The position numbers and the translations under genes are program-made. From the NCBI GenBank assembly GCA_965116475.1, contig OZ220691.1:1440001-1504000 (forward strand): DNA of 64,000 nt, read 5' to 3'. This document shows, one piece after another, positions 41,094-42,285 of this stretch; within the stretch, counting starts at the first letter, position 1, and each line of letters starts with the position of its first letter. This stretch comes from Gemmatimonadota bacterium. Its GTDB lineage: Bacteria > Gemmatimonadota > Gemmatimonadetes > Palauibacterales > Palauibacteraceae. The notes under the pieces are model-generated. The model had not been told where the DNA came from and did no database searches. It saw only the letters and a program-made list of their open reading frames with translations.

Positions 41094-41126
41094 TTGTGGT
41101 CGATAACTGGTAGTTATCAACCGCAA
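41094..41126 (+). other. lox-like recombination site, left (TTGTGGTCGATAA-CTGGTAG-TTATCAACCGCAA)
   Basis: 13-bp imperfect inverted arms (2 mismatches) around a 7-bp asymmetric spacer; 41098-41124 is the exact reverse complement of 42255-42281. Confidence 0.85.
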
Positions 41127-41226
41127 CCCGGTCGCACTTATCGCCTTGTTCCAGAGTCACTTATGCAGATTGCGGCACCGGAAAACAGTGAGCGGTCACA
41201 ACCGCCCGGCCACTGGGCGGTCACGC

Positions 41227-42186
41227 ATGGATGAGCGCCGGTGCGGGGATCCGGAGGCCGCCGCCGGCCTCCTCGGCGAGTACCTGGCCGCCGCCGCCGA
41301 CGGCTCGCTGAGCGGCAACACCGTGCGGGCGCTGAGGGGGGACCTTCAGCGGTTCGCGGCGTGGTGCGCGGAACGGGATCTCTGTCCGCTGCCCGCGCGC
41401 GCGGGGACGGTCGTGGCCTACATCGAAGAGGTGTCGGGCGACCGCGCGCCCGCCACCGTGAGGCGCCATGTCTCGAGCATCGCCGCCGTGCACAAGGCGG
41501 CCGGGGAGCGGAGCCCGTCGGAGCATGCCGCGGTGCGGCGCGCCCTCGCGCGGATGCGGCGGCGGAAGGGGTCCCGGCAGACGCAGGCGCTGGGCCTGAC
41601 CTGGACGCTCCGCCGGCGCCTGATCGAGGGCGGGGGCTCCCGACTCATCGACGTCCGCAACCGCGCGATCCTGGCCGTGGCCTACGACGCCATGCTGCGC
41701 CGCTCCGAGCTCGTCGCGCTCGAAGTCGTTGACGTGAAGGTGGATAGGGGAGGATCGGCCTCCGTCCTCGTGCGCCGGGCGAAGAACGATCCGGAGGGCG
41801 GCGGGGCGGTGCTGTACCTACACCGCGACACCGTGAGGATGCTCAGGGAGTGGCTCGGCGCGAGCGGGGTCGGCAACGGGCCGCTCTTCCGCGCCGTGCG
41901 CAAGGACGGGCGCGTCGGCGCGGCTCTCCATCCGGGCCAGGTGCCGCGCATCTACAAGGCCATGGCCCGGCGCGCCGGGCTTCCGCCGGAGGTGGTGCGC
42001 CGGCTCTCCGGGCACAGCCCGCGGGTAGGCGCGGCGCAGGACATGATCGCCTCGGGCATCGAGCTGCCGGCGATCATGCAGGCCGGGCGCTGGAGGAACG
42101 TCCGCATGGTCCAGCGCTACGGCGAGCGCCTGCTCGCGAAGCGCAACGGAGCCGCCCAGCTGGCCCGGCTCCAGAAGCGCCGCTAG
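41227..42186 (+). CDS. Cre-like tyrosine site-specific recombinase
   Basis: SAM-like N-domain (NT.RAL..D...F..WC); catalytic YDAMLRRSEL (R), RRAKND (K), SGHSPRVGAAQDM (HxxR), AGRW (W), MVQRY (Y), paralleling Cre motifs SGHSARVGAARDM/AGGW/VMNY. Confidence 0.92.
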   Translation: MDERRCGDPEAAAGLLGEYLAAAADGSLSGNTVRALRGDLQRFAAWCAERDLCPLPARAGTVVAYIEEVSGDRAPATVRRHVSSIAAVHKAAGERSPSEHAAVRRALARMRRRKGSRQTQALGLTWTLRRRLIEGGGSRLIDVRNRAILAVAYDAMLRRSELVALEVVDVKVDRGGSASVLVRRAKNDPEGGGAVLYLHRDTVRMLREWLGASGVGNGPLFRAVRKDGRVGAALHPGQVPRIYKAMARRAGLPPEVVRRLSGHSPRVGAAQDMIASGIELPAIMQAGRWRNVRMVQRYGERLLAKRNGAAQLARLQKRR

Positions 42187-42208
42187 AGATACGCCGGGCA
42201 CGGATATT

Positions 42209-42237
42209 TTGGACGGATGACTCCGGCGGGTTATCGT
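42209..42237 (+). promoter_or_regulatory. Putative sigma70-type promoter inside the invertible segment, facing outward
   Basis: TTGGAC (42209-42214) - 17 bp - TATCGT (42232-42237), just inside the right recombination site. Confidence 0.5.
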
Positions 42238-42252
42238 TGCCACCGGGTACGA

Positions 42253-42285
42253 TAGCGGTTGATAACTACCAGTTATCGACCTCTA
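42253..42285 (-). other. lox-like recombination site, right, inverted (TAGCGGTTGATAA-CTACCAG-TTATCGACCTCTA on + strand)
   Basis: Same 13-7-13 architecture; spacer CTACCAG is the reverse complement of the left spacer CTGGTAG. Confidence 0.85.

Follow-up and report, generated by a model that had tools for sequence, protein, structure and literature searches.

The window analysed here is a stretch of 64,000 nucleotides from a Gemmatimonadota bacterium (assembly GCA_965116475.1, contig OZ220691.1, positions 1,440,001 to 1,504,000 of the forward strand), in which a gene for a Cre-type tyrosine recombinase is enclosed by two inverted recombination sites. To the left of this cassette lies the gene of a very large surface protein, pointing away from it, and to the right that of a kinase hybrid. 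The cassette is real and conserved and belongs to a family that inverts in nature, and it probably acts as a self-contained inversion switch that uses a Cre-type recombination enzyme. In window coordinates, the features of the locus are the following.

31888..41067, minus strand: surface/adhesin-type protein of 3059 amino acids (SWM repeats, cadherin-like, Calx-beta, FN3 and LRR domains), the predicted target of the switch.
41093..41127, plus strand: left recombination site, 13-9-13, with a putative 7-bp overlap CTGGTAG at 41107-41113 and the exact 27-mer at 41098-41124.
41163..41234, plus strand: open reading frame of 23 codons, whose ATG is the in-frame recombinase start in most relatives and whose stop falls just beyond the ATG at 41227.
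41188..42186, plus strand: Cre-type tyrosine recombinase of 332 amino acids, GTG start at 41188, alternative ATG at 41227, catalytic residues R171, K199, H276, R279, W302 and Y311.
42209..42237, plus strand: predicted outward sigma-70-type promoter (-35 TTGGAC, 17 nt, -10 TATCGT), a consensus match inside the segment after the recombinase stop.
42252..42286, minus strand: right recombination site, in the opposite orientation to the left one, with the exact 27-mer at 42255-42281.
42293..42325, minus strand: predicted regulator-dependent promoter firing into the cassette from outside the right site, with its -10 at 42298-42293 and boxes at 42310 and 42321 (11-bp period).
42342..42381, plus strand: second pair of boxes (42342, 42353) overlapping a predicted kinase promoter (-35 GTGACT, 17 nt, -10 TATCCT), seen in 50/59 loci, a count made without shuffle control.
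42436..44823, plus strand: sensor kinase/regulator hybrid (GAF-PAS-HisKA-HATPase-REC-winged helix, of OmpR/PhoB type), probably starting with the TTG at 42475.

The recombinase is the sole gene between the sites, each of which lies less than 100 bp from an end of it. Its best PDB matches have all been Cre (residues 42-320, E 1e-29), with XerD reaching merely 6e-5; 103 of 319 aligned residues are identical to Cre, and the phage matches have been P1-type cre at 31%. A first-pass annotation of this DNA, made from the letters alone, had described the lone enclosed gene as a tyrosine recombinase with an intact Cre-type catalytic set, and the alignment bears this out, as the six catalytic residues listed above pair with Cre R173, K201, H289, R292, W315 and Y324 and are found unchanged in all 75 relatives, K199 excepted (74/75). 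At K43, M44, K86, Q90, Q94, R259 and E262 of Cre, which are recognition-position residues, the window protein differs throughout. The 23-codon reading frame could couple translation, as it ends shortly after the ATG at 41227.

The two 27-mers have been confirmed as exact reverse complements of each other, just as annotated, and the identity extends no further outward. Their 25-nt core matches twice within the window and not once across 100 shuffles. Both copies are palindromic around a single central base (41110 and 42269), and when they are read as 13-9-13 in loxP numbering, the arms are symmetric at 10/13 and 11/13 positions. The palindromic arms of the annotation have stood, and its geometry of 13-bp arms around a 7-bp spacer has been refined, the 7 bp now being read as the probable strand-exchange overlap within a 9-bp spacer; a 13-8-13 layout with an 8-bp spacer does not hold at this locus. 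The annotation had also seen no resemblance to loxP. The arms do differ, yet they match loxP at 5-7 of 13 bases, the ATA adjacent to the spacer included. With differences both in the arms and at several recognition-position residues of the protein, the pair may be orthogonal to loxP, a possibility that the annotation had raised. Rfam has returned no match.

Among 61 related genomes searched, 21 contained a match and 5 close copies. The genome scan found 95 relatives, of which 80 were kept, and after removal of 9 duplicates and of loci below 50% protein identity, 78 loci were analysed; as many of these come from related genomes, all counts given here overstate independence. Both sites are present in 66 of the 78 loci (at least 50% protein identity), with inverted central bases identical in 66/66, so that the homologues, whose flanks the first-pass annotation had proposed to search, do not consistently lack paired sites. 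The other 12 loci carry one site or none: three have partners just below the cut-off, two lie at a contig edge, and others are truncated. At L078, L085, L102, L107 and L108, the 5' site is missing and the 3' site kept, and the recombinase is truncated in three of them. Flanking repeats of this type have been found in 0 of 16 homologues below 50% identity. The metagenomes have yielded 54 loci, of which four fall in the group, all with sites, while 36 are without sites and 14 have flanks too short for testing; thus none of the 36 homologues outside the group with adequate flanks (0/36) carries such repeats. The titles of the closest records name metagenome-assembled genomes of Candidatus Palauibacter, followed by Longimicrobiales, Vicinamibacterales, Latescibacterota, Bryobacterales and proteobacteria, groups which, going by their names, we take to be linked to sponges.

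The layout of surface-protein gene, cassette and hybrid histidine kinase is a family trait. Scanning of the first 720 amino acids has detected adhesin-type Pfam domains in 45 of 67 outward genes of the relatives. As to individual neighbours, some loci of a set comprising L075, L080 and L088 (on the 5' side) and L036, L038, L044 and L063 front a 250-amino-acid hexapeptide-repeat protein, and others a protein of 308-320 amino acids with no Pfam match, so that the large surface protein is replaced there.

The spacer is 8 bp long in 58 of the 66 loci with paired sites and 9 bp in the remaining 8, which include the window locus and have the extra base in both sites. Within the loci of the 8-bp class, the central 6 bp of the two sites are identical in 56/58, compared with 0.18 under random pairing, and for the outer two spacer bases the match within a locus falls to 0.72 and 0.93. 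Strand exchange by Cre uses an overlap of 6 bp, and the peak of identity over the central 6 bp, with its drop at the flanking spacer bases, fits this overlap. Arm symmetry at the window sites, taken together with the 6-bp peak of the 8-bp-spacer relatives, points to an overlap of 7 bp here. Identity of the overlap is required for recombination, and 7 bp are typical of phage integrases, according to the available part of bioRxiv 2023.11.06.565760. Of 145 genomes belonging to the order, 5 have been found to contain the 9-bp core, and each of these falls within the genus of the window. In a protein tree (FastTree), the 9-bp loci are near neighbours, interspersed with a single 8-bp locus (L039); comparison of the proteins has found no fixed residue that separates the 9-bp from the 8-bp recombinases.

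That the segment flips in place, as the first-pass annotation had proposed, has been supported at the level of the family. Four related loci in three clades carry the cassette reversed with respect to its flanks (L064, L082, L072 and L111), and compared with their unflipped counterparts the flanks are 88-99% identical in three of these cases and 71-93% in the fourth. Between L064 and L073, the flanks match at 92-99% on the opposite strand and the cassette at 97% on the same strand, with the junctions inside the sites. L082 and L073 belong to one genome, and here the kinase flank is reversed at 98.6% identity and the cassette matches at 99.4%; L072 has flanks reversed at 88-98% relative to L077, and L111 is flipped relative to L056 and L101. 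L107 is probably a fifth case, judged from its alignment with L089 (77% identity, truncated gene). In the alignments of flipped with unflipped copies, the outer arms have been swapped and the inner arms have stayed with the recombinase, which places the crossover inside the shared core of the sites. These comparisons lead us to the conclusion that the family inverts in nature. One orientation dominates, as the kinase-type flank lies 3' of the recombinase in 57 loci of the genome set and 5' of it in 3.

Several further candidates for inversion have been set aside. L175, a third 9-bp site at the end of a contig of G023, has its kinase flank joined to the 3' inner arm, which is the reference orientation. 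L042, L057, L070 and L076 had been picked up through a loose box pattern on the 5' side, and they match on the 3' side as well; moreover, the only loci cross-matched by kinase-type 3' flanks, among the matches listed, are L064, L072 and L082. The cross-match between L084 and L094 does not reach a site on both sides and has been left uncounted. Of the flipped copies themselves, L064 holds a 1.43-kb insertion in its recombinase leader (L064:4520-5954) with an open reading frame of 441 amino acids, probably an insertion sequence, which may have locked this copy. Relative to the kinase flank, the near-identical cassettes L073:5869-7005 and L082:5908-6915 point in opposite directions. Two 1-nt indels distinguish L073, which appears to be frameshifted; L082 is cut off by the beginning of its record.

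The module occurs in several phyla and in several copies per genome, a distribution that would also suit sites representing the ends of a mobile element, and any mechanism using repeats, such as template switching or homologous recombination, would equally put the junction in the shared core and could invert the segment without this enzyme. We consider both of these explanations very unlikely. In G000, the duplicated unit is not the segment between the sites; the whole three-gene block, ~13 kb, recurs there at 97% identity in the same orientation. An insertion sequence or transposon would carry the segment to unrelated flanks, whereas the kinase flank is conserved across most loci, and both ends consist of complete two-armed sites showing the Cre-like peak of 6-bp identity. 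Furthermore, no relative has been found in viral contigs. On plasmids, only homologues below 60% identity have been found, the best at ~49%. The two block copies in G000 (C1:1481098 and 3294839) lie 1,813,741 bp apart in a contig of 3,620,669 bp, almost exactly half the genome, and since their four sites carry the same 27-mer, an exchange between the copies would split or invert half the chromosome.

Regarding the output of the switch, the predicted promoter at 42209-42237 faces the kinase in the orientation of the window and would face the surface-protein gene after a flip. Of 59 loci, 32 have its strict motif, compared with a mean of 1.5 and a maximum of 6 in shuffled sequences. A clade with a short deletion has a different promoter candidate, which overlaps the inner arm. 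In the flipped locus L111, a perfect -35 inside the segment is followed, on the side of the surface gene, by the site, then by an AAGGAGG ribosome site and finally by an ATG. The alignment of the loci has shown no conserved motif on the surface-gene flank, and no support has come for an outward-facing promoter at the inner end on the 5' side (8.1 versus 8.5 in shuffled sequences). A promoter match on the minus strand across the left site has been rejected as the switch, as it is unchanged by orientation. Beyond the right site, 54/59 loci have the -10 of the leftward promoter, which in 51 of them stands 11 nt away from the first box (mean of 8.7 and maximum of 16 in shuffled sequences), and the same motif is found on the surface-gene flank in 2/54. 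The four GTG(A/G)C-like boxes of the kinase side form two pairs at an 11-bp period, the last of them doubling as the predicted -35 of the kinase (50/59 loci). This spacing resembles that of promoters activated by OmpR/PhoB, and the C-terminal domain of the kinase is a winged helix of the OmpR/PhoB type. The promoter functions at the locus are predicted from consensus, and on this basis the window orientation is probably OFF, and the flipped one ON, for the surface gene.

We therefore favour, with a probability of roughly three in four, the reading that the window locus is a self-contained phase-variation switch run by its Cre-type enzyme. The enzyme would bind the palindromic arms of both sites and exchange strands in the identical core, whereby the 1.16-kb segment holding the recombinase gene and the outward promoter would be inverted. 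In the flipped state, this promoter would lie ~75-105 nt upstream of the candidate starts of the surface gene and is predicted to turn it on. The kinase-side promoter, for which the winged-helix domain of the kinase itself is the probable activator, would read the recombinase antisense in the OFF state and sense in the ON state, with a bias back to OFF as the result, and this could explain the dominance of one orientation. For the window, we infer that it is this enzyme that flips the segment and acts on sites with a 9-bp spacer, that the promoters are active, that the regulator binds, and that ON and OFF are assigned as above. A more far-reaching version, in which the kinase-controlled promoter resets the surface protein and thus makes the module a signal-gated recombinase memory, a 7-bp overlap is used without a fixed change in the protein, and surface genes may be exchanged between cassettes via identical sites, is put forward tentatively and is in our view distinctly less probable than not.

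The segment could flip and still have its main output elsewhere, namely in read-through from the kinase side, in a terminator or in expression of the kinase. The promoter on the kinase side is better conserved (54/59) than the inner outward promoter (32/59), and the minus strand has a hairpin resembling a terminator at 41207-41190, both of which would fit such an output. For the kinase, however, a separate promoter is predicted outside the segment, and the alignment of promoter, site, ribosome site and start in flipped L111 speaks for the surface gene, so that we hold this alternative to be unlikely.

Several observations weigh against a working switch at the window locus. No flipped copy has been found among the 8 loci of the 9-bp subgroup. 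The Logan contigs of runs X1 (depth ~89) and X2 (~2.7) span both sites in the reference orientation only, and no strand-change joint at the sites is among the X1 and X2 joints listed, in contigs that drop rare variants; X3 covered neither site fully, and 2 reads were obtained from ~1% of the Hi-C run X11. No RNA run is listed among those containing the sequence, and rows with a small share have not been taken as evidence of habitat. In-place flipping has been upheld for the family, and at the window locus and in its 9-bp subgroup only the reference orientation has been seen. The ATG with which most of the family starts (41163) does not lie in frame with the gene in the window and its closest relatives. 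The strict outward promoter is absent from 27/59 loci, mostly of the one clade with the short deletion, and the outward genes have other Pfam families in 7/67 cases and none in 15/67 within the scanned portion.

Taken together, the single orientation of all eight 9-bp loci and of the contigs, the lack of a fixed residue that sets their enzymes apart and the out-of-frame ancestral ATG would suit a frozen switch, that is, a family that inverts and a lineage in which both spacers have gained one base, fixing the cassette in its OFF state. Flipped copies are nevertheless so rare overall (3 versus 57) that 0/8 would be expected either way. The enzymes of the 9-bp class have kept all catalytic residues, and the paired 9-bp sites stay identical at 30-33 of 35 positions and change together (CTGGTAG or TTGGTAG, with different arm types). 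Freezing is accordingly regarded as improbable, and the reading of an operating phase-variation switch is retained as the more probable one.

Several known systems are comparable with this module. Cre/loxP, Dre, Vika and the YR series of PMC10250229 are like it in the homologous enzyme, the catalytic set and the palindromic arms of ~13 bp, and the GATA beside the spacer of the module sites is also a motif noted in the available part of that paper. The Cre-like 8-bp spacer and the peak of 6-bp identity are common to 58/66 relatives, whereas the spacer in the window is 9 bp and the discovery pipeline described in that part of PMC10250229 required 8 bp. The site strings of the module are absent from one supplementary file of the paper, whose table of ~500 pairs may lie outside that file. 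In contrast to Cre/loxP of phage P1, the record of which has a single loxP upstream of cre, two inverted sites enclose the gene here, and the module sits in the chromosome, next to genes for a surface protein and a kinase.

The analogy to Salmonella hin/hix, drawn in the first-pass annotation, reaches further than stated there, as the predicted outward promoter also lies inside the segment; hin likewise has the recombinase gene and a promoter for a neighbouring surface-structure gene within its invertible segment (PMC9368917, available part). Hin belongs to the serine enzymes and depends on Fis, HU and an enhancer (PMC9368917, same part), while the module differs from it in its Cre-type tyrosine enzyme, its two-armed palindromic sites, its frequent presence in multiple copies per genome and its linked hybrid kinase. 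It is thus no serine invertase; a Fis enhancer was not searched for. In fimS, hyxS and ipuS of E. coli, a tyrosine recombinase also inverts a promoter controlling an adhesin or autotransporter, as far as the available text of PMC6083910 goes. These are short elements (ipuS 260 bp) with repeats of 7-16 bp and a recombinase gene beside or merely overlapping them (PMC6083910, same text), compared with 1.16 kb, 27-bp two-armed sites and a whole Cre-type gene inside in the module. Gemmatimonadota or sponges are not mentioned in the available part of PMC11602134, and no description of this module has come up in the literature searched, which comprised listings and the starts of abstracts, with most subscription journals outside the coverage.

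Cre-type enzymes, known from phages, plasmids and as tools, appear here to drive the phase variation of large surface proteins on the chromosomes of uncultured marine bacteria, in a group where surface repeats are assumed to serve contact with the host. The set amounts to dozens of enzyme-site pairs with at least 22 different 8-bp spacers, in which flanking duplication and natural crossovers show where the sites lie. Its 9-bp subgroup makes a 7-bp overlap in a Cre-type synapse directly testable, and 9-bp sites would escape any search demanding an 8-bp spacer.

Some minor observations concern neighbouring genes and further copies. In the window, two tandem genes for Ig-like/LRR/M66- or reprolysin-type metallopeptidases (42307-48588 and 48012-51119, both on the minus strand) converge on the kinase, and the former extends into a spurious longer reading frame and may be frameshifted near 44830-45120. 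A paralogue of the kinase with 73% identity and an AT-rich upstream region lies at G000:C1:2692221-2693968 without an adjacent recombinase. Downstream at other loci, a second kinase copy in opposite orientation (L037:11338-12645) and a second recombinase-like gene (L094:7266-8136) have been seen.
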